NCBI GenBank assembly: GCA_016187515.1
Contig: JACPJN010000006.1
Location: 128,856-192,855 of the forward strand
Reading direction: 5' to 3'
DNA length: 64,000 nt
Source: Candidatus Uhrbacteria bacterium
GTDB taxonomy: Bacteria; Patescibacteriota; Patescibacteriia; GWA2-47-26
Below, piece by piece: positions 9,772 to 54,695 of the stretch. A program made the translations under genes and the position numbers. Numbering within the stretch: position 1 is the stretch's first letter; each line of letters begins with the position of its first letter. A model generated the notes under the pieces. The model was not told the DNA's origin, did not search any database, and saw nothing but the letters and a program-made list of their open reading frames with translations.

Positions 9772-9858
9772 GCCGGGATGGTGAAACTGCCAGACACGCG
9801 GGACTCAAAATCCCGTGACCGCAAGGTCGTGAGGGTTGGACTCCCTCTCCCGGCACCA
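9772..9858 (+). tRNA. tRNA-Leu (anticodon CAA), class II with long variable arm, CCA encoded
   Basis: GCCGGGA acceptor stem paired with TCCCGGC. Anticodon stem CGGGA/TCCCG with loop CTCAAAA. Variable arm TGACCGCAAGGTCGTG. T arm GAGGG-TTGGACT-CCCTC, followed by ACCA. The T-loop is slightly atypical (TTG instead of TTC). Confidence 0.8.
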
Positions 9859-10656: not shown

Positions 10657-10705
10657 CTTTTAATCAAATGCAAAAACACTCCGATGATGATCGGAGTGTT
10701 TTTAT

Positions 10706-10777
10706 TGCGGGGGCGGGATTTGAACCCGCGACCTCCGGGTTATGGGCCCGGCGAGCTTCCAGGCTGCTCCACCCCGC
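10706..10777 (-). tRNA. initiator tRNA-Met (anticodon CAT)
   Basis: The minus-strand sequence GCGGGGTGGAGCAGCCTGGAAGCTCGCCGGGCCCATAACCCGGAGGTCGCGGGTTCAAATCCCGCCCCCGCA is nearly identical to E. coli tRNA-fMet. This includes the three consecutive G-C pairs in the anticodon stem. No CCA is encoded. Confidence 0.9.
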
Positions 10778-10799
10778 TATATGCAATTTTGAGTAGGAA

Positions 10800-10856
10800 T
10801 CCACGACCTTCCCGACTATGGTCGGGACGGCTTCCATGCTGCTCCACCCCGCTATG
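10800..10856 (-). pseudogene. degenerate partial copy of tRNA-fMet (5' end through T-loop), 22 nt upstream of the intact gene
   Basis: GCGGGGTGGAGCAGCATGGAAGCCGTCCCGACCATAGTCGGGAAGGTCGTGGATTCC. The acceptor 5' strand and D-arm are conserved. The anticodon loop is shortened (CCATAG). The 3' T-stem and acceptor strand are absent. Confidence 0.6.
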
Positions 10857-10909
10857 CAGTGCGTGGATAACATGATACACTGCCATCTCAATACTGTCAA
10901 ACATCGCCC

Positions 10910-14608: not shown

Positions 14609-15028
14609 TCAAATGCTTGATTTACTTGACTTGCTCGTCTCGCCTGATTTACTTAATTGATGAGTATTATCCTTCTGACTTTGAATCCATCGCCGTAATT
14701 TTTTACTTACCTCCCCTCCAAGCGCCTCAATACTAGTATACTGTGCTTTATCAATATAGCCAAGCTCACATGCGACCATCAGCTGATATCGTACCTCCTC
14801 TAAGGAAGCATCGGCAATATTGTAAAAGTGGAGACTATCATATACTGACTTTCTGTGAAAGCCCTCTACAATATTGGATGCTACAGATAGCGCGGCACGA
14901 CGTAGCTGTGATACAAGGCCGTACATCTCATGTGGTGGAAACTTTGCAGTAAGGCGATACACTTCTACCACAAGTTGATGTGCTTTCTGCCACACCTGTA
15001 AATCCCTAAAGGTACTGATCTGTGCCAT
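14609..15028 (-). CDS. four-helix-bundle protein (23S rRNA intervening-sequence protein / Avd-like family)
   Basis: FRDLQVWQKAHQLVVEVYRLTAKFPPHEMYGLVSQLRRAALSVASNIVEG matches the family consensus. The C-terminal tail (SKSGETSKSSKSS) is encoded by the TTGATTTACTTG repeat, so the true stop may lie earlier. Confidence 0.75.
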   Translation of the reverse strand: MAQISTFRDLQVWQKAHQLVVEVYRLTAKFPPHEMYGLVSQLRRAALSVASNIVEGFHRKSVYDSLHFYNIADASLEEVRYQLMVACELGYIDKAQYTSIEALGGEVSKKLRRWIQSQKDNTHQLSKSGETSKSSKSSI

Positions 15029-16704: not shown

Positions 16705-16867
16705 GAGTCAGTCTCCTTGCTAATCCAGGGTTTGATTTGCCAGCAATGCTTGGTGCACAAATTAATTACGACCCAAATACTGCTGGCACACTTTCTCATT
16801 TAAAAGAACACCAACCAATATAACACAAGAATGGGCTTTTGTCAAGCCCATTCTTATCATCCGCTCA

Positions 16868-16939
16868 TGCGCGCTGAGGGGATTGAACCCCCGGCCTACT
16901 CGGTGTAAACGAGTCGCTCTACCACTGAGCTAAGCGCGC
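16868..16939 (-). tRNA. tRNA-Val (anticodon TAC)
   Basis: Minus-strand sequence GCGCGCTTAGCTCAGTGGTAGAGCGACTCGTTTACACCGAGTAGGCCGGGGGTTCAATCCCCTCAGCGCGCA has a canonical cloverleaf. No CCA is encoded. Confidence 0.9.
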
Positions 16940-17059
16940 ACATTTATCTATAAGCAAGAGGTTAGGTGCTCTACCACTGAGTCCCGACGAGCCGACTCAT
17001 CGTCGGCTGTCGGCTCCCCGACTCCGCCGGAGGCGGACGTCGGGGCTACGCGCGCAAAA
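16940..17059 (-). pseudogene. tRNA-Val-like 5' fragment (acceptor + D-arm) interrupted by a 64-nt palindromic insertion, directly upstream of the intact tRNA-Val
   Basis: Minus strand reads GCGCGCGTAGC then an insert (CCCGACG...CGTCGGGA) then CTCAGTGGTAGAGCACC. The insert is itself a nest of hairpins: TCCGCCTCCGGCGGA, GTCGGGGAGCCGAC and AGCCGACGATGAGTCGGCT. No anticodon or T arm follows. Confidence 0.55.
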
Positions 17060-17142
17060 TGCCCGGGAGAGGATTCGAACCTCCATGCCCTTGCGGGCGT
17101 CGCCACCTCAAGGCGGTGTGTCTGCCATTCCACCACCCGGGC
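17060..17142 (-). tRNA. tRNA-Leu (anticodon GAG), class II
   Basis: Minus-strand sequence GCCCGGGTGGTGGAATGGCAGACACACCGCCTTGAGGTGGCGACGCCCGCAAGGGCATGGAGGTTCGAATCCTCTCCCGGGCA. It has a long variable arm and the canonical T-loop TTCGAAT. Confidence 0.85.
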
Positions 17143-17179: not shown

Positions 17180-17911
17180 CTACTTACTACTTACTCTCCG
17201 TGCCGTTCTCCTTCCCCCAATCATTCTAATCGCTTCCGGAATTATGTCAACTTGGATGGGGGTTTTAACCACCCCGGAGGCGCCGCAATTAACCGAGATC
17301 GGCCGGACGGCCTTAAGCCGGCAAGAAGCGATCTTAAGCACGGTGGTTTCTTCCGGTTCTCTGCTCCACCAGGTTCGCTTAAAAGGGGTCACGCGCACGG
17401 TAAGCAATCCATCATTGCCGTTTTCCCCGTCTCCCAGATTCACGATCTCGACGCGGGTAAAACCCTTGGGGAATATGCTGAAGGTCGGCGTGTGAACGTC
17501 CAATCCTTTCCCTTCACCGCACACTTTCCCAAGAAAATACTTTTCTCCGATTCTCCCCAGATCAAGTTTTATAATTCGGCGCGCGGCCAGCGCGTCTACC
17601 GCGGCCAGGCCGTCGGGAATGGCGAGCTCGGGCGCGTAGTTGCTTTTTACCGCCGGAATGTAACCCAAAATAACCGAGGTTTTCGCGAAAGCGTTCACCG
17701 CTTCTTCAAGCAGTGCGTCATCTCCCACCAGCACCAGGGTTTTTAGCCGCTTGAGTCCGAATTCTTTGACTGCCGCGGGAAATTTGAGAAATTGCGAGAG
17801 CTGGGAAATTTTTCCGGAAATTCCAAAATCGGTAACGCGTCCTTCAATCAGCGCGAGCTCGCGCGCGTACTTTTTATTCCGCAAGAATGGCGCGTAAAGA
17901 TAAAGATACAT
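17180..17911 (-). CDS. DAGK_cat-type lipid kinase / NAD-kinase-fold protein with degenerate GGDGT motif
   Basis: LVLVGDDALLEEAVNAFAKTSVILGYIPAVKSNYAPELAIP aligns to the diacylglycerol-kinase catalytic-domain pattern GGDGT..V.NGL....LG.IP.GT.NDFAR. The key Gly/Asp/Thr residues are substituted (GDDA). Confidence 0.5.
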   Translation of the reverse strand: MYLYLYAPFLRNKKYARELALIEGRVTDFGISGKISQLSQFLKFPAAVKEFGLKRLKTLVLVGDDALLEEAVNAFAKTSVILGYIPAVKSNYAPELAIPDGLAAVDALAARRIIKLDLGRIGEKYFLGKVCGEGKGLDVHTPTFSIFPKGFTRVEIVNLGDGENGNDGLLTVRVTPFKRTWWSREPEETTVLKIASCRLKAVRPISVNCGASGVVKTPIQVDIIPEAIRMIGGRRTARRVSSK

Positions 17912-19666: not shown

Positions 19667-19698
19667 GCTTCTAACGGGTAAATGCAGTGCGGCCGCAC
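19667..19698. repeat. 32-bp perfect palindrome GGTAAATGCAGTGCGGCCGCACTGCATTTACC (NotI core); copy 1 of 3
   Basis: Perfect dyad symmetry. T-rich tract follows on the plus strand. Related copies lie at 27236-27268 and 28038-28070. Confidence 0.7.
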
Positions 19699-19879
19699 TG
19701 CATTTACCGTTTGTTATTTTCTGTAAATTTTTGTTTTCCTGAATCACGGCTTCTTAAAAAAAGACCGCACGACCCTAAGAAAGGTGTGCGGGGCCCGCGC
19801 GAGAACGCACGCGCAGGCAAGATCGTCTCCGCCACTTCGAGGCGGCTTTCGCCTCTTCGGGGCGGGTTTGCGGAAAGAG

Positions 19880-22768
19880 CTATGGCGTGTATCGCCCGCC
19901 ACTATCAATAAACAGGTTACAGTAAACATTGCAGCCGCCCCAAATGATCATTTCTGATCCTGTCCAAACCGCAGTATGACCGCGACGAGCAGCGGGGGCA
20001 CCCATACTTGACACTGGTAACCAGCTGTTGCCTGTAGGACTATAACGCCCACCGCTACCAAGCACATAGTTATCCCATGTGCCGGGACCATCGAAGTAAC
20101 CGCCCCATACCAACATTGCTGACCCGCTCCATACTGCGGTGTGATCAGAACGCCCGGATGGCGTGTCATCCGTAATTGAGGTCGGACTCCAAGTATTCGC
20201 GGGTGGATTGTATCGCCCGCCAGTGTTGAAGTAAACCCATGAGAAAGGGGGGCCTGCTCCATCCCCACCCCATACAATCATCTCTGCTCCGGTCCAGACA
20301 GCGGTAAACCCATCTCGTTGAGACGGTGCCCCGCTTATGTACATAGGAATCCATGAATTGGTCGTAGGACGATATCGTCCTTGCGCACAAAGTTCTCCCC
20401 TCCAACTACAGAGTGTGCCACCCCAGAGAATCATTTCGGAGCCGGTCCAAACCGCAGTGTATCCTTCTCCGCCACTCGTGGGTGCATTTTGATCGGTAGA
20501 AGTGGTCGAAGTTGCGGTCCAAGTATTTGTAGTAGGATTATATCTTCCACCGCTTAAAAGGTATCTTTCACCAAAGCCGCCGTCTCCGCCCCACACAATC
20601 ATTTCCGACCCAGTCCACACGCTCACATGTAAATACCGTGCAGATGGAGCATTAAATGTGCTTGTCGGTATCCATGCCTCCAGATCTGGATCATAGCGTC
20701 CTCCAGTGTTGACTGGATCGCTCAACCAATCTTCTCCGCCCCAAACGATCATTTCTGATCCTGTCCAAACCGCAGTATGACTTGCAGACCCTGCCGGAGC
20801 ATCTACTGTGGTCACAGGATTCCATGAGTCTGCTACAGGATCGTACTTCCATCCTGTATTGGTAGTGAAGAATTCATCCTGTAAAAAGCCGCCCCAGACA
20901 ATCATCTCTGCTCCGGTCCAGACCGCAGTATGGCGGATGCGACCACCTGACGACGGTGATTGTGGCTGAAGCGCCATGGACCGCCAACAGTCTGACGCTC
21001 CATTGTCATCCTCGCCGTCGCAATCGTCATCCAACCCGTTGCAGACCTCGATGCTGTCTGGCGTGTAATCCGAACAGGTGACACTGCCGTCCGGAGCGCA
21101 GATGATCAGGCCCTCCAAACAGCTGTCGCTGTCAGGACCGTCACACGCCGTGCCTAGGCCGAGACCTTCGTCTCTCGCGCCGTCGCAGTCGTTATCGAGC
21201 TCGTCGCAACGCTCGGTAGATCCCGGATGGATTGATCCATCCGCGTCATTACAGTCGGTCCCGCCAATACAGGTCGCCGCGAAAAACCCGTCGTTATCGG
21301 CATCCAGCGTCAAGGTCTGCCGACAACCGGTCGGAGCGCACCGATCGGTTGTGCAGACGGATCCATCATCACAGCGCTCGTGCACGGCCACGGTAGAGCA
21401 AGTCCGCGCCGCTTCAAAGCACAGGTCAATGGTGCAGGCCACGCCGTCGTTGCAGACCACGGGCGCACCCATTGCGCATACTCCGGCGATGCAGACCTCT
21501 TGCCCGTCGCAGAAAATGCCGTTGTCGCAGGAAACGTGCGCGTCTGCGTCATCCACTAGGCCATTGCAGTCGTTATCTTGGCCATCGCAGACCTCTTCAG
21601 CATCCGGGTTGATGTATGGATTATCGTCCGCACAGTCATTTCCGCCGGCGCAAGAAGCAGAGAAAAAGCCATCACGGTCGGCGTCCAGGGTCAGCGCATT
21701 GCGGCAGCCAGTTGGAGTGCAGCGATCTTCGGTGCAGGAATTGCTATCGTTGCACAACCCATGGGCAGCCACGGTGGAACACGCGCGCGCTGCTTCAAAG
21801 CAAAGGTCAATGGTGCAGGCCACGCCGTCGTTGCAGATAACTGGCTCGCCGAGCGCGCACACGCCACCCACGCACTGCTCTTGACCATCGCAGAAAATGC
21901 CGTTGTCGCAGGAGGTCGCGGCTTCGCCATCATCAACTGCGCCATTGCAGTCATTGTCTTGGCCGTCGCAGATCTCGGGACGCGGAAGGCCGGCTGGCGG
22001 GGCAGTGCAATCCAGGGACTCGCCATCGTCGCTGCAGACCCATTCGCCAGTGGTGCGGCAAGCGCCAATGCTTATGGCGCACTCCGCGCCAAGGCCAACC
22101 TCCAGAAACGGCTCGTCTGCCGCGCCGGAACAGTTGTCGTCAATACCGTTACACAGCTCAAGCGCGTCCGGGTGCACGTTTGGATTGTCATCATCGCAGT
22201 CGCCCTGGGCAATCGTGTAACCGTCGCGGTCGCCATCAGTATATGGCTGCGGGGGGCAAGTGGCCCAAAGTGCGTTTGGGCCGCAACCGCCGGCATAGTC
22301 CGGCGGGTCGCCGTAGGGATTAACCCGCACTCCATCAGGATCCTGCACCTCGAAATGGAGATGGGGACCGGTGGAAAAACCGGAATTGTCCGAAAGTGCG
22401 ATTTGTTGGCCAGCTTCAACTTGCTCACCTTCGCGAACTCCGATAGAGTTTCCCGTAAGGTGCGCGTAGATGGTCAAATAGCTGTTTTCATGGCGGATGC
22501 GGATATGGTTGCCCAAACCATCCTTCAGATTCGGTCGATCAGGATAGCGGCGTTCTACTCGCACCACCTCGCCATCAGCAGCAGCCAGGATTGGCGTGCC
22601 ATGGGGTGCACGGTAATCGATGGCGCCATGACACCGGCCCTGAATAGGGTAGTCACGACAGCAGAAGTCACAAGTGAGTGCGCGAGATTCCTCGAATGGT
22701 AGATAGAGAAATTGCTCTGCATGAGCAACTCGCACGACCAACAGTGCAAGGATGATATTTCGACTCAT
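19880..22768 (-). CDS. secreted multidomain protein: N-terminal M23 (LytM) peptidase domain, Cys/Asp-rich repeats, C-terminal Kelch-like beta-propeller repeats
   Basis: Signal peptide MSRNIILALLVVRVAHA. The M23 motifs are HGAIDYRAPHGTPILAAADG ... GNHIRIRH ... GPHLHFEV. Repeated CDGQDNDCNG / CNGIDDNC motifs occur, along with Cys-rich CNDGVACTIDLC units. The tract of about 9 repeats of approximately 50 aa centred on TAVWTGSEMIVWGG resembles the Kelch hhhhGG signature. The C-terminal GGRYTP is shared with paralogs 28252..29787 and 30597..34745. Confidence 0.75.
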   Translation of the reverse strand: MSRNIILALLVVRVAHAEQFLYLPFEESRALTCDFCCRDYPIQGRCHGAIDYRAPHGTPILAAADGEVVRVERRYPDRPNLKDGLGNHIRIRHENSYLTIYAHLTGNSIGVREGEQVEAGQQIALSDNSGFSTGPHLHFEVQDPDGVRVNPYGDPPDYAGGCGPNALWATCPPQPYTDGDRDGYTIAQGDCDDDNPNVHPDALELCNGIDDNCSGAADEPFLEVGLGAECAISIGACRTTGEWVCSDDGESLDCTAPPAGLPRPEICDGQDNDCNGAVDDGEAATSCDNGIFCDGQEQCVGGVCALGEPVICNDGVACTIDLCFEAARACSTVAAHGLCNDSNSCTEDRCTPTGCRNALTLDADRDGFFSASCAGGNDCADDNPYINPDAEEVCDGQDNDCNGLVDDADAHVSCDNGIFCDGQEVCIAGVCAMGAPVVCNDGVACTIDLCFEAARTCSTVAVHERCDDGSVCTTDRCAPTGCRQTLTLDADNDGFFAATCIGGTDCNDADGSIHPGSTERCDELDNDCDGARDEGLGLGTACDGPDSDSCLEGLIICAPDGSVTCSDYTPDSIEVCNGLDDDCDGEDDNGASDCWRSMALQPQSPSSGGRIRHTAVWTGAEMIVWGGFLQDEFFTTNTGWKYDPVADSWNPVTTVDAPAGSASHTAVWTGSEMIVWGGEDWLSDPVNTGGRYDPDLEAWIPTSTFNAPSARYLHVSVWTGSEMIVWGGDGGFGERYLLSGGRYNPTTNTWTATSTTSTDQNAPTSGGEGYTAVWTGSEMILWGGTLCSWRGELCAQGRYRPTTNSWIPMYISGAPSQRDGFTAVWTGAEMIVWGGDGAGPPFSWVYFNTGGRYNPPANTWSPTSITDDTPSGRSDHTAVWSGSAMLVWGGYFDGPGTWDNYVLGSGGRYSPTGNSWLPVSSMGAPAARRGHTAVWTGSEMIIWGGCNVYCNLFIDSGGRYTP

Positions 22769-23406
22769 TAACGCACCTCCGTTGCAAAGGAAGCAGCAAT
22801 GGTCTCTAGCTCTACAACTTTTGGATTGCCAGAGATTGAGTACACGCTGCCATTCGCCTCTGTGATGTATGTTTCGGACACATCATCAATAAGTTCACTG
22901 ATATAGCGCACTCTGGTAAACATCGTCCCACCTATAATTACCTGCGATTGAGATTCGATACCATCGATATATTTGATTTCTTCATTAATACTTCCTGCTC
23001 GCACTACCTCAATCGTGAGTGGGTACGGCGGATCAGAATGTAGCAATGGTGTGAACGGTTCCGGGTTTAACACCACGATGTGGACATTCGCATCACCTAT
23101 CGCGTCGAAAGGAAGCTCTGCATAGTACCACCCCTCCGGATACGCCAACTGCGCAATTCCCCAGGCCGGATTGCGGTACACTTGCCATCCTTCCGGAATC
23201 ACACTGCCGGAATCCGGCGCGCCAGCGTCCGCGCGTTCCTCTTTTACATCTTCAGCTTCCCTCTCGGCTTCTGCTCCAGCATCGGCCGATTCCGCCGCCG
23301 GGGTCTGGGTCAGCACTTTTTCCTTGCAGCCCAGCCCCAAAAGCGCAAACGCGACAAACACGGTCATTAACTTGTCAATGAACCCGCCTCTCCCACCGAC
23401 GTTCAT
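22768..23406 (-). CDS. lipoprotein, paralog pair with 29787..30425
   Basis: MNVGGRGGFIDKLMTVFVAFALLGLGC has a lipobox. The first roughly 110 aa are near-identical to the paralog, then the sequences diverge. It overlaps the downstream M23/Kelch gene by 1 nt (two-gene cassette). The start is chosen at M21 of ORF-track 22768..23466, so the true start is uncertain. Confidence 0.6.
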   Translation of the reverse strand: MNVGGRGGFIDKLMTVFVAFALLGLGCKEKVLTQTPAAESADAGAEAEREAEDVKEERADAGAPDSGSVIPEGWQVYRNPAWGIAQLAYPEGWYYAELPFDAIGDANVHIVVLNPEPFTPLLHSDPPYPLTIEVVRAGSINEEIKYIDGIESQSQVIIGGTMFTRVRYISELIDDVSETYITEANGSVYSISGNPKVVELETIAASFATEVR

Positions 23407-23513
23407 GCCTCCGTCCCGACCGTGGTCGGGACTCGGACTTTTCTCCTCGCTTTGAGTATAGTGCATATATGATAATTTGACAATTAGCTTCGCGATAATT
23501 GGTGATTCGATAA

Positions 23514-27235: not shown

Positions 27236-27268
27236 GGTAAATGCAGTGCGGCCGCACTTTGTTTACCA
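27236..27268. repeat. NotI-core palindrome copy 2 (ggtaaatgcagtgcggccgcactttgtttacc), in the divergent promoter region between the SDR gene and the PaaX-like gene
   Basis: Read directly from the sequence. Confidence 0.6.
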
Positions 27269-27967: not shown

Positions 27968-28037
27968 GGGGACTGCTCCGCTGTACTCGCCTATCACACC
28001 AGCGTAAACCCTCAAGATAAACCCTCAAACAAACACG

Positions 28038-28070
28038 GTAAATACAGTGCGGCCGCACGTTATTTACCGT
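28038..28070. repeat. NotI-core palindrome copy 3 (ggtaaatacagtgcggccgcacgttatttacc), between convergent gene ends
   Basis: Read directly from the sequence. Flanked by A-rich and T-rich tracts, consistent with a bidirectional terminator. Confidence 0.6.
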
Positions 28071-28251
28071 TTATTTTTGACGGCAAGTTTTTGTTTTATG
28101 GTTTTATGGAAAGTACTCCAATCCGATTCTTGGTTATCCTGAATAACTCAATAAAAAGAAAAAAGCCCACGTGTGTTCAAGACACGCAGGCCAGAGCGTA
28201 CCGCCGCGAAAAGGCGGCTTCCCGCCTCCTCGTGGCGGGTTTGCAAAAGAG

Positions 28252-29787
28252 CTACGGCGGCGTATACCGTCCGCCGGTGTTGAGCGGTCCATCTTCATCA
28301 CTCCCTCCCCAGACCACCATTGCACTGCCAGTCCAAACCGCGGTGTGCAAGTAACGCGCCGCAGGCGCGCCAACAGTGGAGACCGGACTCCAGGAGTCGG
28401 TTTCCGGATCATACCGGCTGCCAGTGTTGAGTAGGCCATCTTCACCCCATCCATCCCGTCCTCCCCAGACCACCATTGCACTACCTGTCCAAACCGCGGT
28501 GTGCAAGTAACGCGCCGCAGGCGCGCCAACAGTGGAAGTCCGACTCCAGGAGTCGGTTTCCGAATCATACCGGCTGCCAGTGTTGAGACGGCTATCTTGA
28601 CCCGCTCCTCCCCAGACCACCATTGCACTACCGGTCCAAACCGCGGTGTGATAGTCACGCGCCGCAGGCGCGCCAAAGGTGGCAATCGTACACCAAAATT
28701 CGTGGCAATCCGAATCATCTTGATCAATGAATCCATCTACGTCGTTGTCTACGCCATCACAGCAACCACATTCAATGAGTACTCCTGCAACGCAAGCAAT
28801 TGCAGCAGACCCGCATGTTATGGTGAATCCTTCATCCACTCCGCCATCACAGTCGTTGTCCAGCTCGTCGCAGACTTCAACCGGAGCCGAACCGCAGACA
28901 CCGCAGGCATTGAGGAGTCCTTCATCTGTTGCGCCGTCGCAGTCGTTGTCAACCCCATCGCAGGTCTCGGGGCTTGACGGGAAAGGGACAGACGAGCAGG
29001 CGGTGCTCATGAAATCGGCGGTGCAAACATAGACGCCGGTGTTTTGGCAAGCGCCCACTCCTACTGTGCAAGGGGTAAGCAGGCCGGGGAATCCTTCGTC
29101 GGTCTGTCCATCGCAGTCATCGTCGGTGTAGTTGCAGACCTCGTCGGCATCGGGATTAATGACCGAGGCCGGCACACCTTCTGGCGTCTCCCCAGAGTCC
29201 AGGCAATCGCCTTCAGCAACCGTGTAGCCGTCGGAGTCGTTGTCAGCGAACGCGGGGCTCCAGGGCTGGGGAGGGCACGTGGCCCAGAGGGGGTTGGCGC
29301 CGCATCCCCCTGCGTAGTCCGGCGGATCGCCGTAGGGATTTACCCGCACTCCATCCGGATCGCGGACTTCGAAATGAAGGTGGGGGCCACGAGAAAACCC
29401 TGAAGTGTCTGACAGTGCAATCTGCTGACCGGGCGTAACGTCGCTATCCTCCTCCACCCGAATCGAGTCAGGAGCAAGGTGCGCGTAGATCGTAAGGTAG
29501 CCATTGGAATGCCTGATGCGAACATGGTTCCCAAAACCGCCCCGACGTCTAAATCCTGCAGGATGAGAATTATCTACCCTCGTGACGCTTCCTGCCGCGG
29601 CAGCAAACACAGGAGTGCCGCCCGCTGCTCGGTAATCGATCGCATTATGGCAAACGTTTGGGATCGGGTAGTTGGGACAGCAGAAATCACACGTAATAAC
29701 GCGTGTTTCTGCTAATGGCAGATACAGAAACTGTTCTGCTCTTGCCACACTTGCGGTAGCAAGTATTGCCATTATGTGCCTAATCAT
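28252..29787 (-). CDS. secreted M23 peptidase / Cys-rich / Kelch-like repeat protein (short paralog of 19880..22768)
   Basis: Signal peptide and M23 motifs (HNAIDYRAAGGTPVFAAAAG, GNHVRIRH, GPHLHFEV). CDGVDNDCDG-type motifs. Three TAVWTGSAMVVWGG repeats. C-terminus TGGRYTPP. The last roughly 45 coding nt plus about 90 nt downstream are near-identical to the 30597 paralog. Confidence 0.75.
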   Translation of the reverse strand: MIRHIMAILATASVARAEQFLYLPLAETRVITCDFCCPNYPIPNVCHNAIDYRAAGGTPVFAAAAGSVTRVDNSHPAGFRRRGGFGNHVRIRHSNGYLTIYAHLAPDSIRVEEDSDVTPGQQIALSDTSGFSRGPHLHFEVRDPDGVRVNPYGDPPDYAGGCGANPLWATCPPQPWSPAFADNDSDGYTVAEGDCLDSGETPEGVPASVINPDADEVCNYTDDDCDGQTDEGFPGLLTPCTVGVGACQNTGVYVCTADFMSTACSSVPFPSSPETCDGVDNDCDGATDEGLLNACGVCGSAPVEVCDELDNDCDGGVDEGFTITCGSAAIACVAGVLIECGCCDGVDNDVDGFIDQDDSDCHEFWCTIATFGAPAARDYHTAVWTGSAMVVWGGAGQDSRLNTGSRYDSETDSWSRTSTVGAPAARYLHTAVWTGSAMVVWGGRDGWGEDGLLNTGSRYDPETDSWSPVSTVGAPAARYLHTAVWTGSAMVVWGGSDEDGPLNTGGRYTPP

Positions 29788-30425
29788 TATGGCACCTCCG
29801 ATTGGAATGAGGATACGACAGTTTCAAGCGAGACCAATTCAGGGTCGCCAGTTATGGCATACACCCTCCCATTCATCTCCAATAGATACGATTCGAACTC
29901 TCTATCTACGAGCTCCTCGAGATATCGAATCTTTACAAACTGCCGCTCTCTAATTTCAACCGTAGTCTGTGACTCAAGATTCTGCGTAAGCAGAATCTCC
30001 TCTTCCAGCGTTCCACCTTCTCGAACATCAAGAGTGAGAGGGTACACTGGATCCGTATTGGAAAGCAGTGCAATCGGCTCAGAACTAAACACCACCACCA
30101 GAAGATTCGCATCACGAGTTTCTTCTGTCGACAATTCTTGTGAGTGCCACCCCGCCGGATACGCCAACTGCGCAATTCCCCAGGCCGGATTGCGGTACAC
30201 TTGCCATCCTTCCGGAATCACACTGCCGGAATCCGGCGCGCTGGCGTCCGCACGTTCCTCTTTCACATCTTCAGCTTCCTTCTCGGCTTCTGCTCCGGCA
30301 TCGGTCGATTCGTGAGCCGGGGTCTGGGTCAGCACTTTTTCCTTGCAGCCCAGCCCCAAAAGCGCAAACGCGACAAACACGGTCATTAACTTGTCAATGA
30401 ACCCGCCTCTCCCACCGACGTTCAT
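29787..30425 (-). CDS. lipoprotein, paralog of 22768..23406
   Basis: MNVGGRGGFIDKLMTVFVAFALLGLGCKEKVLTQTPA... is identical over the N-terminal region. It overlaps the downstream M23/Kelch gene start by 1 nt. Confidence 0.6.
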   Translation of the reverse strand: MNVGGRGGFIDKLMTVFVAFALLGLGCKEKVLTQTPAHESTDAGAEAEKEAEDVKEERADASAPDSGSVIPEGWQVYRNPAWGIAQLAYPAGWHSQELSTEETRDANLLVVVFSSEPIALLSNTDPVYPLTLDVREGGTLEEEILLTQNLESQTTVEIRERQFVKIRYLEELVDREFESYLLEMNGRVYAITGDPELVSLETVVSSFQSEVP

Positions 30426-30596
30426 GCCTCCGTCCCGACCGTGGTCGGGACTCGGATCAAAGTTAATTGCCTCTCTACGCATTATTCCACACTTTGACAA
30501 AACAAAAAAGGCCTGTGTGTTTTCAAGACACGCAGGCCAGAGCGTACCGCCGCGAAAAGGCGGGAATCGCCTCTTCGTGGCGGGTTTGCAAAAGAG

Positions 30597-42177: not shown

Positions 42178-42963
42178 GTACCCTGAAAACCGGATGATCG
42201 CCCCCACACCTATCAGACACAGTGACGCACAGCGTCAAAACAGGACCTAGGTATACAGGTGTTGATGAAAAGCATCGTTTGCCAGTTGAACAAGACAGAC
42301 TTGCTTACTAGTGTCTGAAAGGTGTGGGGGAGGAAAGTCCGAACACCCCAACCAGTGCTTCGCACTGGAAATTCCAAGCACCAAGCACCAAATACCAAAA
42401 AAATCCCAAACTAAAAATTCCAAATCACAAACTTGGAATTTGGGATTTGGAGATTGAATATTGTCTGGAATTTGGAAATTGTGATTTGGGATTTCCAGCG
42501 CGGAGCGCTGGCGGAAGTAGGTACCAGCTAACGGCTGGGCATCCTGCTCGGCATAACACATAAAGCCGGCTGACGGATTAGTGCCACAGAGACAATACTA
42601 CCCCCACACCTATCAGACACTTTGGCGCGAAGCGCCACAAGAGCCTAACCATACGGAAGTTCTTGCTGAATACAACTGCCAGTCGAATAAGACAGGATGT
42701 GCATGTACAAGGTGCCTGAAAGGTGTGGGGGGAAAGGTGAAAAGTGAGGTGGTGTTTATCGCTTAATTCCACTCTAAAGGTGGCGTAAACGAGGAAGCTA
42801 CACCTCTTGCTCCCGAGTAATCGGGATGCGTGGAAAACCCTACCTGGTGCAAGTCGTATAACCGACGCATGAGGCCCCGCGTAAGCGGGGTCCCAGAGAG
42901 ATGATCATCCAGTCCCGCGGACGCGGGACGGACAGAATTCGGCTTACAGGTTTTCTTGGTACG
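42178..42963 (+). ncRNA. rnpB: RNase P RNA (bacterial type A core) with greatly expanded P3, P5.1-region and P12 helices (about 786 nt)
   Basis: CR-I GGAGGAAAGTCCGAACACC is at 42329. A P5.1-like UUCG hairpin ccagtgcttcgcactgg follows. Then CCAGCTAACGGCTGGG (a P8-like GNRA-type hairpin). Then AGTGCCACAGAGACAATAC (cf. E. coli AGUGCAACAGAGAGCAAAC). Then a CR-II-like GGTGAAAAGTGAGGTGG. CR-V ACAGAATTCGGCTTA is at 42932. P1/P2 pairing joins 5' GTACC/GAAAACC with 3' GGTTTTC/GGTAC. The expansions are 42201-42330 (P3 position), 42365-42500 and 42601-42731 (P12 position). Confidence 0.65.
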
Positions 42964-49974: not shown

Positions 49975-50024
49975 TGGGCGAGGAGGGAGTCGAACCCTCA
50001 TGCCTTGCGGCATACGCTCCTGAA
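49975..50024 (-). pseudogene. tRNA 3'-half fragment (anticodon loop TTCAGGA through acceptor 3' strand CCTCGCCC)
   Basis: Minus strand reads TTCAGGAGCGTATGCCGCAAGGCATGAGGGTTCGACTCCCTCCTCGCCCA. There is no 5' half adjacent. Its acceptor strand is perfectly complementary to the 5' fragment at 50230-50285. Confidence 0.55.
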
Positions 50025-50037
50025 GCCCGCCTAAATT

Positions 50038-50121
50038 TGCCCAGAGGGGGACTCGAACCCCCATGGCCTTGCGACCGCTAGCTCCTGAAGCTAGTGCGTC
50101 TGCCAATTCCGCCACCTGGGC
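50038..50121 (-). tRNA. tRNA-Leu (anticodon CAG), class II
   Basis: Minus-strand sequence GCCCAGGTGGCGGAATTGGCAGACGCACTAGCTTCAGGAGCTAGCGGTCGCAAGGCCATGGGGGTTCGAGTCCCCCTCTGGGCA. It abuts 13-bp inverted repeats cccgcctaaattt (50025-50037) and aaatttaggcggg (50122-50134) on both sides. Confidence 0.85.
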
Positions 50122-50134
50122 AAATTTAGGCGGG

Positions 50135-50203
50135 TGAACTAGTGCGCCTGCCCAGCACCGAGCTTCGCTCTGGTGCTGGGTCTGCCAATTCCGCCACCGC
50201 GGC
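50135..50203 (-). pseudogene. tRNA 5'-half fragment (acceptor, D-arm, then a 32-nt hairpin insert, truncated in the anticodon loop at TTCA)
   Basis: Minus strand reads GCCGCGGTGGCGGAATTGGCAGAC then CCAGCACCAGAGCGAAGCTCGGTGCTGGGCAG then GCGCACTAGTTCA. Confidence 0.5.
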
Positions 50204-50229
50204 ATTGGTGTGGGGGTGAATCTGCCAAC

Positions 50230-50285
50230 CTGTCCCGCCGCCCTCCGACCGTAGTCGGAGTGGTGCGGGATTCCACCACTCGCCC
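50230..50285 (-). pseudogene. tRNA 5'-half fragment (GGGCGAG acceptor + D-arm + 7-bp hairpin), complementary to 3' fragment 49975-50024
   Basis: Minus strand reads GGGCGAGTGGTGGAATCCCGCACCACTCCGACTACGGTCGGAG.... It starts 5 nt after the stop of the solute-binding-protein gene. Confidence 0.5.
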
Positions 50286-53134: not shown

Positions 53135-53144
53135 TCGCGGAATT

Positions 53145-54695
53145 ATGAATTATGAATTAAGAATTATGAATATACGGAGATCGATTCTCCGTGGCCACGG
53201 AGAATCGATCTCCCGATTTTTCCTACTCCTTACTCCTTATTCCTTATTCCTAATTCTCACGCTTGCTCTACCAGCGCAAGCCCAATCCCTGCCCCAACTT
53301 AAAACCTTTTGCTTTACCCAAGACGAGTGCGTTTCCCCGCCCTACAGCGGCGAGGCCAAAGAAGCGCCGGAATGTCGTGACCAAGATCCCCGCTATGTCC
53401 AGGCCGGCTATCTTTACAACTGTTACGCCAAACAGCAGCCCATCCGCCTGGAGGTCGGGATTGGCCCGTATAAAGTCGCGGGCATTGAGGATTATATCCG
53501 CCGACTCTACATTTATCTCATTGGCATCTCCGGAATCGTGGTGGGCGTGATGTACACTTGGGCCGGCTTAAAATGGCTAACCTCGGGCGGAGCTCCGGAC
53601 AGAATCACGGACGCGAAAAAGAAAATCGGAAACGCCACGGTCGGGCTCGTGCTGCTGCTCTCCTCCTACCTGATTCTCCAAACCGTTAATCCCGCGCTCG
53701 TGCGTCTGCGTTTGCCGGCCCTGAAGATGCCCCGCCAGGTTCTCTTGGGGGACGACTTGTGTGTAAATCGCCCGGAATATCCCTGCGGCGGATTAAAATT
53801 GCGGCCATCGCTAAGCCAGGATGGGCTGGGTCAATGGCAAGTCGCTCTGCTCGATCCCCTGCTCCGGGACAGGAAATATCAATGTGATGACCCCAGTAAT
53901 GCGGACTTGGCGCGTAACCCGCCTTGCCAAGACGGAGTCGGCTCCGGCGCTTGCGTACCCCGCTTCTGTCCATTTCCGGGATGCTATACCCTGCTTGAGG
54001 ACCGGATTACTGAAGATGCTCAAGATGTTATCGAGGGCATCGACGAGTATCAAGAAGCTCGCGATGCTGGACTGAATGTTCCCACTGGAACGAGCGATGC
54101 TGAGGTTTTGGAGCTGATCACGACTTTCCGCGAACAAGCCAGCCAAAATCAACGGATGTGCGTTAAACCGGAACAGTGCGGAGGGTGCGCGGCCAATACT
54201 CCCTGGGCGGTCTGTGTCTCGTCTGCTTGTCCCTGCATACTGGATGTAAAAGAAATTGGCGGGGAAGATCAGATCGTTTGCGCCGGCCGGCGAGGTGAAG
54301 GTCAGCCCTGCGAAAGGCATGAGCAATGCCAAGGCCAAGGCCAAGGCGGCCGAGCCGGACGCTGCAACTTTGGCCGCATACCTAATGAATGCACTCCGGA
54401 AGGAGGCGAGCCACCCGGACAGCCCTGCGATGTTGATGGCGATTGCGCAAGCGGGCTATGCAATGAGAATGCCGCGACAGATGTATGCGTTGCTCCGCAA
54501 TCGCTCCGCATTGGAGAGGATTGTTCTTCCAGCGAAGAGTGTGTTACCGGGGTTTGCGGATATGAAGGCGTGATTAGCACTCTTAATCCCGCCTCTGACC
54601 CAGTTTGTATGGCGGCAGGACAATGTAACGGTCTAACCCGAGTTGGCTGTCCTTGTGAAACTTCCATCAACTGCAATACGAATACCGGGGATTAA
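53145..54695 (+). CDS. secreted/membrane protein with VirB2/TrbC-like two-helix hydrophobic hairpin and C-terminal Cys-rich domain (tentative)
   Basis: Signal peptide FFLLLTPYSLFLILTLALPAQA. The hydrophobic helices IYLIGISGIVVGVMYTWAGLKWLTSGG and IGNATVGLVLLLSSYLILQTV are separated by a short polar loop. The long C-terminal region has more than 30 Cys. Start taken at 53145 within ORF-track 53043..54695. Confidence 0.4.
   Translation: MNYELRIMNIRRSILRGHGESISRFFLLLTPYSLFLILTLALPAQAQSLPQLKTFCFTQDECVSPPYSGEAKEAPECRDQDPRYVQAGYLYNCYAKQQPIRLEVGIGPYKVAGIEDYIRRLYIYLIGISGIVVGVMYTWAGLKWLTSGGAPDRITDAKKKIGNATVGLVLLLSSYLILQTVNPALVRLRLPALKMPRQVLLGDDLCVNRPEYPCGGLKLRPSLSQDGLGQWQVALLDPLLRDRKYQCDDPSNADLARNPPCQDGVGSGACVPRFCPFPGCYTLLEDRITEDAQDVIEGIDEYQEARDAGLNVPTGTSDAEVLELITTFREQASQNQRMCVKPEQCGGCAANTPWAVCVSSACPCILDVKEIGGEDQIVCAGRRGEGQPCERHEQCQGQGQGGRAGRCNFGRIPNECTPEGGEPPGQPCDVDGDCASGLCNENAATDVCVAPQSLRIGEDCSSSEECVTGVCGYEGVISTLNPASDPVCMAAGQCNGLTRVGCPCETSINCNTNTGD
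53177..53224 (+). terminator. 38-bp perfect palindrome + T-tract (ggagatcgattctccgtggccacggagaatcgatctcc cgattttt), a terminator-like structure lying inside the 5' coding region of the next gene
   Basis: Read directly from the sequence. The only in-frame ATGs for the downstream secreted protein (53145, 53166) lie before it. Confidence 0.5.

Follow-up and report, generated by a model that had tools for sequence, protein, structure and literature searches.

Why do intact tRNA genes lie directly downstream of broken copies of themselves? The question is raised by a stretch of 64 kb (the window, i.e. the whole stretch of DNA that was analysed) from a metagenome-assembled genome (MAG) of Candidatus Uhrbacteria, a member of the candidate phyla radiation (CPR, Patescibacteria). 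In our reading, which we hold to be probable though well short of certain, each partial copy is the non-functional remainder of a tRNA gene that formerly stood at the site and was replaced in place by another copy; the remainder was later colonised by palindromes. Replacement is the simplest account that covers all the loci. Five tRNA genes were called in the window with ARAGORN and Rfam.

9772-9858, plus strand: tRNA-Leu(CAA) (ARAGORN/Rfam)
10705-10778, minus strand: initiator tRNA-Met(CAT), intact (ARAGORN; Rfam 55.8 bits)
16868-16939, minus strand: tRNA-Val(TAC), intact (ARAGORN; Rfam 71.7 bits)
17060-17142, minus strand: tRNA-Leu(GAG), intact (ARAGORN/Rfam); first gene of the Leu(GAG)-Val transcription unit, with no copy of itself
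50038-50121, minus strand: tRNA-Leu(CAG), the working 'type 2' gene (ARAGORN/Rfam)

Partial copies in the window

Each tRNA was aligned locally to its own masked flanks, the scores were compared with those for shuffled flanks, and all fragment coordinates were re-extracted from the sequence. The fragment scores lie far above those of shuffled flanks, and in this respect the recurrence that a preliminary description of the DNA had judged unlikely to be chance is borne out. Its wider statement, that every intact minus-strand tRNA is preceded by a partial copy, is wrong because tRNA-Leu(GAG), also on the minus strand, and tRNA-Leu(CAA) show nothing above background; copies accompany three of the five tRNAs, namely initiator Met, Val(TAC) and Leu(CAG). 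Scanning of the whole window with each tRNA and with Rfam (E <= 5) revealed no tRNA fragments away from their cognate gene, and neither the fragments nor their hairpins match an Rfam family at the gathering threshold or at E <= 5. The comparison with related genomes that had been proposed as a check was informative: relatives carry a single uninterrupted gene at all three syntenic sites.

The tRNA-Leu(CAG) locus

The clearest case of replacement is the tRNA-Leu(CAG) locus, whose parts are as follows.

50221-50285, minus strand: fragment A, the 5' part of the resident 'type 1' tRNA-Leu(CAG)
50270-50285, minus strand: resident 5' end within A, GGGCGAGTGGTGGAAT, 16 nucleotides (nt), aligned to the intact type-1 genes of relatives L087, L110 and L084
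50229-50269, minus strand: palindromic insert of A, 41 nt
50221-50228, minus strand: end piece of A, TTGGCAGA
50204-50220, minus strand: leader-like 17-mer, TTCACCCCCACACCAAT
50139-50203, minus strand: fragment B, from a further tRNA-Leu(CAG) allele (acceptor GCCGCGG), of which it is the 5' half down to the anticodon stem
50147-50180, minus strand: hairpin of B, 34 nt, in the D loop
50026-50138, minus strand: inner cassette, the type 2 tRNA-Leu(CAG) with its flanks
50122-50134, minus strand: left inverted repeat, CCCGCCTAAATTT, with TTCA before it
50026-50037, minus strand: last 12 nt of the right inverted repeat, AAATTTAGGCGGG, whose first A is the discriminator base 50038
49975-50025, minus strand: 3' half of the resident type-1 gene, from the anticodon loop to the 3' end, 51 nt (score 49 versus 12.9 ± 1.9)

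The gene order SBP_bac_5 - tRNA-Leu(CAG) - RNase J is kept in many relatives, and by RNase J the nearest relatives of the window are Patescibacteria MAGs. In L087, L110 and L084 (RNase J 84%, 79% and 87% identical, respectively), the site is occupied by one uninterrupted gene, GGGCGAG...CTCGCCCA, and a single resident gene is, judged from this alignment, the ancestral state. In the window, the first 16 nt of the type-1 gene and its last 51 nt, the latter still followed by the ancestral trailer, stand approximately 228 alignment columns apart (insert ~236-240 nt). Fragment A is weak by its own score and was identified through the alignment with the type-1 genes of the relatives; the acceptor strand CTCGCCC of the resident 3' half pairs with its GGGCGAG. 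Compared to L087, the resident gene has lost 8 nt, CACGTACG, which comprise the 3' strand of the D stem, nucleotide 26 and most of the 5' strand of the anticodon stem. The insert consists, in order, of the 41-nt palindrome, TTGGCAGA, TTCACCCCCACACCAAT, fragment B, TTCA, CCCGCCTAAATTT, the intact gene and AAATTTAGGCGGG. Fragment B is composed of GCCGCGG...GGCAGA, the 34-nt hairpin and then CGCACTAG (score 39), and the inner intact gene, of the GCCCAGG type, is 74% identical to the resident type. Fragments A and B are the two hairpin-bearing 5' pieces already noted upstream of this tRNA in the preliminary description, which overlooked the 51-nt 3' half downstream.

A further allele can be recognized in a relative. 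Downstream of its intact resident gene, L084 carries a 3' fragment, ...TCGCGGCA, which contains TCGCGGC and is followed by the same trailer, AAATTTAGGCGGA. The GCCGCGG of fragment B complements this fragment, and B therefore represents a third, once functional allele. Another configuration is found in L088 (83%), where a GCCCAGG-type 3' part lies downstream. On this comparison, tRNA-Leu(CAG) genes of at least three lineages have replaced one another at a single site in close relatives.

These observations bear on a simpler explanation, namely, that slippage or unequal crossing-over copied a stretch that began in the leader and ended within the gene, and that the upstream copy then decayed, without any foreign DNA. 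Such a partial tandem duplication has one end inside the gene, so that the observed polarity would follow automatically, and the 17-mers before B and before the intact Leu gene are similar (10/17 match). On the other hand, it fails for fragment A and the 3' half at this locus and for two further loci described below (L012 and L103), where the outer and inner genes are of different lineages, and the compensated acceptor of B marks B as a distinct functional allele. As a general explanation, tandem duplication is in our judgement unlikely.

The window derives from a MAG, and tRNA genes are repeats common to strains; collapsed or chimeric repeats of co-existing strains might thus imitate such a structure. 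This explanation was rejected and is very improbable, given that the whole Leu complex is matched at 100% identity (421 aligned nt) by L001, a contig of the Logan assemblies with records for 4 samples. A graph chimera at this locus is excluded because the sequence common to both Leu gene types at the junction, approximately 10 nt or less, is too short. In addition, like architectures occur in unrelated MAGs of other studies (L012, L103), including a homologue in L103 of the tRNA-Val relic described below. The concern that the fragments might be assembly artefacts is thereby answered for the Leu complex.

Two further observations concern this tRNA family. The tRNA-Leu(CAG) of L088 (positions 70-154) has a mismatched acceptor stem (GGGCACG versus CCCGCCC) and looks chimeric for two lineages. 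The acceptor stem and T arm of the working tRNA-Leu(CAG) in the window are nearly those of tRNA-Leu(GAG) of L101 (4744-4829), one base of the 3' acceptor strand being different; overall, the gene is 80-81% identical to Leu(GAG) of L101 and L105 (3299-3384) and at most 80% identical to any Leu(CAG). This resemblance suggests an anticodon switch in its history.

The initiator tRNA-Met locus

At the second locus, the partial copy is confined to the upstream side.

10872-10900, minus strand: promoter-like site, TTGACA-17-TATCAT (11/12 matches)
10854-10871, minus strand: leader, 18 nt; its orthologue in relatives is the leader of their single Met gene
10797-10853, minus strand: Met', relic of initiator tRNA-Met positions 1-57 (local alignment)
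10810-10827, minus strand: palindrome TCCCGAC-CATA-GTCGGGA within Met', in place of the anticodon arm
10779-10796, minus strand: spacer between Met' and tRNA-Met, 18 nt
10671-10704, minus strand: intrinsic terminator after tRNA-Met

Met' scores 52 against 13.6 ± 2.0 for shuffled flank and extends from the 5' end into the T loop, just as had been described; the distance to the intact gene is 18 nt by alignment instead of the 22 given earlier. The first 24 nt of Met' and Met are identical at 23 positions, and the rest is approximately 60% identical by eye. In the relatives L090/L089 and L109, a promoter-like site (TTGACA-17-TATCAT or TATAGT) and a related leader abut one intact Met gene. In the window, the orthologous site and leader stand before Met', where the ancestral gene began, and no promoter-like site was found between Met' and Met. 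The upstream site would accordingly be expected to drive Met' and tRNA-Met as one transcript. The relatives at this locus are distant (at best 61-62% identical in the phosphoesterase), and none of them has Met'. The pentamer TGCAT precedes both Met' and Met and is their sole shared upstream sequence; a tandem duplication would account for this, as well as for the fact that Met', like the Val relic described next, has the acceptor sequence of the adjacent gene.

The tRNA-Val(TAC) locus

The third relic lies between two tRNA genes of one transcription unit.

17223-17250, minus strand: promoter-like site of the Leu(GAG)-Val transcription unit
16968-17056, minus strand: Val' as a whole, starting 3 nt after tRNA-Leu(GAG)
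17045-17056, minus strand: 5' acceptor and D-stem piece of Val', TGCGCGCGTAGC
16982-17044, minus strand: two-hairpin insert of Val', 63 nt
16968-16981, minus strand: D-arm piece of Val', CTCAGTGGTAGAGC, 14/14 identical to the Val gene
16940-16967, minus strand: spacer between Val' and tRNA-Val, 28 nt
16825-16857, minus strand: terminator after tRNA-Val

The upstream copy split by a multi-hairpin insert, as first described, is confirmed in these pieces. Relatives were anchored on the upstream 243-amino-acid protein. In L105 and L106, tRNA-Leu(GAG) is followed by Val only 1-2 nt later, and in the window, Val' is found near that start. The 28-nt spacer has no counterpart in this ancestral arrangement, which again speaks against tandem duplication. 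In L101, the spacer contains a hairpin-bearing 3' fragment of Leu(GAG) and no Val'. A homologous Val' with the same two hairpins was found only in L103 (GCA_030674435.1; anchor protein 60% identical), where it forms the left part of a split Val gene of the GGACGGT type, a type that is intact in L106. The order in L103 is the left part, an intact GCGCGCT-type Val, a GIY-YIG open reading frame (ORF), a second hairpin-bearing copy leading into the rest of the GGACGGT gene, and a second GIY-YIG ORF. The inner GCGCGCT-type Val of L103 is 97% identical to the Val gene of the window.

The GIY-YIG nuclease ORFs of L103 (5269-5559 and 5709-5978) encode 96 and 89 amino acids, are 38% identical to each other, and each follow a tRNA-Val copy; the first runs into a hairpin-bearing tRNA-Val fragment. 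Positions 5507-5640 of L103 form an almost full-length tRNA gene with a hairpin in the D loop. By analogy with the intervening sequences of rRNA, such D-loop-hairpin tRNA genes could be expressed and processed.

The hairpins of Val' raise the possibility that the partial tRNAs and their hairpins form a functional leader, in which they would signal processing, insulate folding or act as decoys, tuning maturation by competition for the 3' acceptor strand. In fact, across the window and the two L103 copies, the hairpins comprise 24 pairs with 94% of cells paired, 5 pairs changed on both sides and none changed on one side only. The predicted folds of the Val and Leu precursors are far stabler than those of shuffled sequences (z = -4.2 and -8.3, respectively), and in the minimum-energy Val fold, the 5' strand of Val' pairs with the true 3' acceptor strand. 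The fragments also lie downstream of the sole promoter-like sites found and are probably co-transcribed, and fragment and gene show concerted evolution, Val' and Val having a common D-loop variant within the genome of the window. Against these points, the pieces are absent at all three loci in relatives with the same promoter, leader, neighbours and terminator: a single gene without any fragment is found for Met in L090 and L109, for Val in L105 and L106, and for Leu in L087 and L110. L101 also lacks Val', which is shared by L103 alone. Lengths, breakpoints and hairpins follow no common design, the two other tRNAs of the window have no such pieces, and the Met precursor is not unusually stable (z = -1.2). 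The predicted stability comes largely from the tRNA stems and palindromes, and covariation among three sequences fits maintenance of palindromes at the DNA level equally well. The decoy or processing structures suggested at the outset fit poorly, and we regard a functional leader as an unlikely explanation.

Generality and polarity of the fragments

Non-redundant tRNAs from the fetched CPR loci were scanned by score for cognate fragments up to 400 nt away. Such fragments accompany 10 of 37 CPR tRNAs, and more diverged ones were recognized by eye in L084 and L101. Among the approximately 16 fragments found by scan and by eye, all those upstream are 5' parts and all those downstream are 3' parts, with no case of opposite polarity. 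In L012, outer halves (GCCGAAG/CTTCGGC) enclose a Leu(CAG) gene of the GGGGATG type, a two-sided arrangement like that of the window, and a 19/24 inverted repeat surrounds the inner gene.

This pattern is relevant to the first explanation offered in the preliminary description, that the copies are attachment (att) site scars. Integrase-borne elements would have entered the tRNA genes by crossover in the anticodon or T loop and later been deleted, leaving the displaced piece beside a restored gene. The stem-loop DNA of tRNA genes is a classic target of tyrosine integrases, and partial tRNA genes are known by-products of integration (PMC9897764; for an archaeal case, PMC3293823). Some breaks do lie in loops (the T loop in Met', the anticodon loop at the start of the resident Leu 3' half), and TTCA is found on both sides of the inner Leu cassette. 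The upstream pieces, however, are 5' parts, while integrases normally duplicate 3' parts, and the sole 3' half (49975-50025) differs in lineage from the intact gene. The distance from relic to gene is only 13-28 nt (18 for Met, 28 for Val, 13-17 for Leu, with a whole Leu insert of ~236-240), which leaves no room for an element. A Pfam scan of 25 neighbouring ORFs detected no integrase, transposase or recombinase within several kb of the three loci, and att scars are unlikely for this reason also. The breakpoints differ from locus to locus: Met' ends in the T loop, Val' after the D arm, B in the anticodon stem and A at the end of the D loop. Finally, the inner gene is complete and of another lineage at the Leu locus, in L012 and in L103; therefore, nothing was restored by att duplication. 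The general idea of recombination scars at tRNA genes thus survives, while T-loop att scars of lost elements fit poorly and are quite unlikely.

Palindromes in the relics

GC-rich hairpins occur in nearly all relics, in the D loop of 5' pieces or the T loop of 3' pieces, and in no intact tRNA. Those of fragment A and of the left part in L103 sit exactly between resident-type and donor-type sequence. Known small palindromic repeats include the repetitive extragenic palindromes (REPs), and Rickettsia palindromic elements insert into genes. The palindrome of Met', TCCCGAC-N4-GTCGGGA, has 3 exact copies in the 64 kb against 0.16 expected, one in Met' and the others upstream of two paralogous ORFs; the latter two lie in a duplicated segment, leaving two independent sites. 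The palindrome thus recurs at unrelated non-coding sites of the window, as in a REP-like family.

The duplicated segments (23300-23434 and 30320-30453) are near-identical, ~135 nt long, and located at the 5' ends of the paralogous ORFs 22768-23466 and 29787-30500, which have no Pfam match; in each, the palindrome is just upstream of the likely start codon. The next ORFs downstream on the minus strand (19880-22768 and 28252-29787) encode paralogous M23-peptidase/MopE/Kelch proteins. A second palindromic repeat family is formed by GGTAAATGCAGTGCGGCCGCACTGCATTTACC, approximately 32 nt, at 19677-19708, 27236-27267 and 28022-28083, perfect at one of these sites and degenerate at two. An inverted repeat at 53139-53250, with 56-nt arms that are 73% complementary, consists of short AT-rich tandem units (GAATTATGAATTA...).

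Proposed mechanism of replacement

The replacement may be pictured as follows. A second copy of the same isoacceptor gene, with its own short leader, would enter the resident gene, an event that for Met' has a formal equivalent in partial tandem duplication. The old promoter (or the upstream tRNA) would then be separated from the new working gene by the 5' part of the resident gene, and at Leu(CAG), the 3' half would likewise be stranded downstream. The relics are preceded by promoter-like sites and thus probably enter the transcript as part of the precursor or leader; RNase P cleavage at the 5' end of the intact tRNA would then remove them. GC-rich palindromes may later have been inserted into the D or T loops of the relics, or may have arisen at the recombination junctions. 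As for the mechanism, the guess that we favour is that the resident gene recombines with tRNA DNA that is incoming or paralogous; conserved tRNA segments would supply homology on one side and an illegitimate join would be made on the other, perhaps helped in some lineages by a homing endonuclease. Exact-pattern scans of a viral contig collection gave no match that would point to a phage source of the incoming genes or hairpins. We infer that the relics are without function, and the order of events is likewise a reconstruction; the relics would persist because a clean deletion that spares the promoter is unlikely, not because they are needed.

Several findings weigh against this reading or call for refinement of it. 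First, insertion and tandem duplication cannot be distinguished for Met' because the nearest relative is only ~62% identical. Second, the Val' hairpin pair differs from that of L103, which belongs to another genus, by the five compensated changes alone, which is unexpected for freely decaying junk in a ~1-Mb genome. Third, Met', Val' and B have diverged from the adjacent gene except in their 5'-most 14-24 nt, where identity is still 95-100%; this, together with the D-loop variant common to Val and Val', indicates gene conversion or constraint. Fourth, the window and L012 have an identical left junction, GGCAGA/TTCAC, and inverted repeats adjoin the inner tRNA in each of the two nested Leu cassettes. 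The common junction and the inverted repeats hint at a mechanism that is more specific, possibly site-specific, than generic recombination.

The inverted repeats deserve a closer description. The 13-nt flanks of the inner Leu gene in the window are perfect inverted repeats that extend the acceptor helix to approximately 20 base pairs, and the complementarity of leader and trailer at this cassette is 24 against a shuffle maximum of 18. Such leader-trailer pairing is seen at the nested Leu cassettes alone (window and L012) and is absent at Met, Val and other tRNAs. These repeats, the GGCAGA/TTCAC junction and the GIY-YIG genes of L103 are compatible with a self-propagating cassette, in which a tRNA gene flanked by short inverted repeats, in some cases together with a GIY-YIG gene, would home into the resident cognate gene. 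Such a cassette would not splice itself out but would supply a working copy, and for that reason would be tolerated; the half-gene relics would act as homology arms for the next transfer. An endonuclease gene beside inserted DNA is present in L103 only and not in the window, and tblastn with both L103 GIY-YIG proteins revealed no homologue in the window or at any other locus. A dedicated cassette is a tentative idea that we consider rather unlikely.

Two types of explanation by split genes were rejected. A group I or archaeal-type intron does not agree with inserts that are 34-63 nt palindromes or a whole tRNA, nor with fragments that are without essential tRNA segments. A functional split or intron-containing tRNA does not agree with the loss of the 3' strand of the D stem and the 5' strand of the anticodon stem in A, with the intact copy inside, or with the lack of an Rfam match at E <= 5. 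To our knowledge, bacteria do not possess the archaeal tRNA-splicing endonuclease.

If in-place replacement is the correct explanation, it has several implications. tRNA genes are usually taken as stable landmarks; here, in a lineage with a tiny genome, a gene would have been replaced repeatedly at the same site by a different allele, with half-genes left behind. The locus provides a bacterial case of an insertion-split tRNA gene and bears on the long-standing debate over the origin, ancient or derived, of split and disrupted tRNA genes. In annotation, such relics may be mistaken for pseudogenes, att sites or non-coding RNAs, and the tRNA sequences of these bacteria need not follow organismal phylogeny. 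A dedicated cassette or nuclease, if real, would represent a new route for selfish DNA into an essential gene.

Other structural RNA features of the window

The RNase P RNA gene (42446-42962, plus strand) is 517 nt long, compared to a model of 367 positions, and scores 106.9 bits against a threshold of 100. Large insertions are present: one hairpin has gained approximately 110 nt, in a second 7 nt are replaced by 53, and close to the 3' end there is a GUCCCGCGGACGCGGGAC hairpin. The tRNA-Leu(CAA) gene falls below the Rfam tRNA threshold, its sole match being a weak one to tRNA-Sec, and it is the only tRNA of the window with an encoded CCA. Its D loop has GC where relatives have GG, and its T loop reads TTGGACT compared to TTCGACT in L090 and TTCGATT in L108; by these loop sequences, the G19:C56 elbow pair seems to be swapped to C19:G56. 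The gene at 14609-15028 on the minus strand encodes a 23S rRNA intervening-sequence protein (PF05635), which fits the CPR habit of insertions in structural RNA genes.

Comparison with known systems

Literature searches on tRNA fragments and insertions in CPR bacteria gave nothing specific, and the loci were compared with four systems described elsewhere. The partial tRNA genes left by integrating elements (PMC9897764) are alike in that dead pieces lie near an intact gene of the same identity and stem from recombination that targets a tRNA gene. Here, instead, the 5' pieces lie upstream and close to the gene, no element or recombinase is near the loci, and the two-sided cases hold a complete gene of another lineage inside the old one.

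A second parallel is the tRNA-Thr(GGU) locus of Caldiarchaeum subterraneum, where a tRNA gene that has been replaced or disrupted is preceded by a 5' fragment, an arrangement read as a route to disrupted tRNA genes (PMC3293823). There, too, the fragment comes from another allele than the working gene behind it, and it was heterogeneity among related genomes that led to its discovery. The archaeal insert is 1.8 kb long, encodes a recombinase and is associated with spliced introns, whereas the inserts described here are 80-240 nt long and non-coding.

In phage T4, SegB, a free-standing homing endonuclease of the GIY-YIG family in a tRNA gene cluster, drives the inheritance of the tRNA region (PMC2330249). 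Similarly, the GIY-YIG genes of L103 are directly beside the tRNA-Val copies that split the resident gene, and gene conversion driven by a nuclease would explain one-way replacement. On the other hand, the putative nucleases of L103 have only about 90 amino acids, the other loci contain no homologue, and T4 SegB leaves no nested tRNA halves.

The palindromes resemble REPs and other small palindromic repeats (MITE review, PMC10969869; MITE, miniature inverted-repeat transposable element) in that they are short and GC-rich, occur in several copies per genome, are non-coding and keep their pairing as the sequence changes. They differ in being shorter (18-63 nt) and in their preference for the D and T loops of dead tRNA pieces, and no transposase was seen among the ORFs scanned, which cover part of the window. 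In none of the tRNA cases above (PMC9897764, PMC3293823, PMC2330249) does a predecessor gene enclose, within tens of nucleotides, a complete cognate tRNA gene, with relics that carry palindromes and with no element present; it is this combination that sets the loci described here apart.

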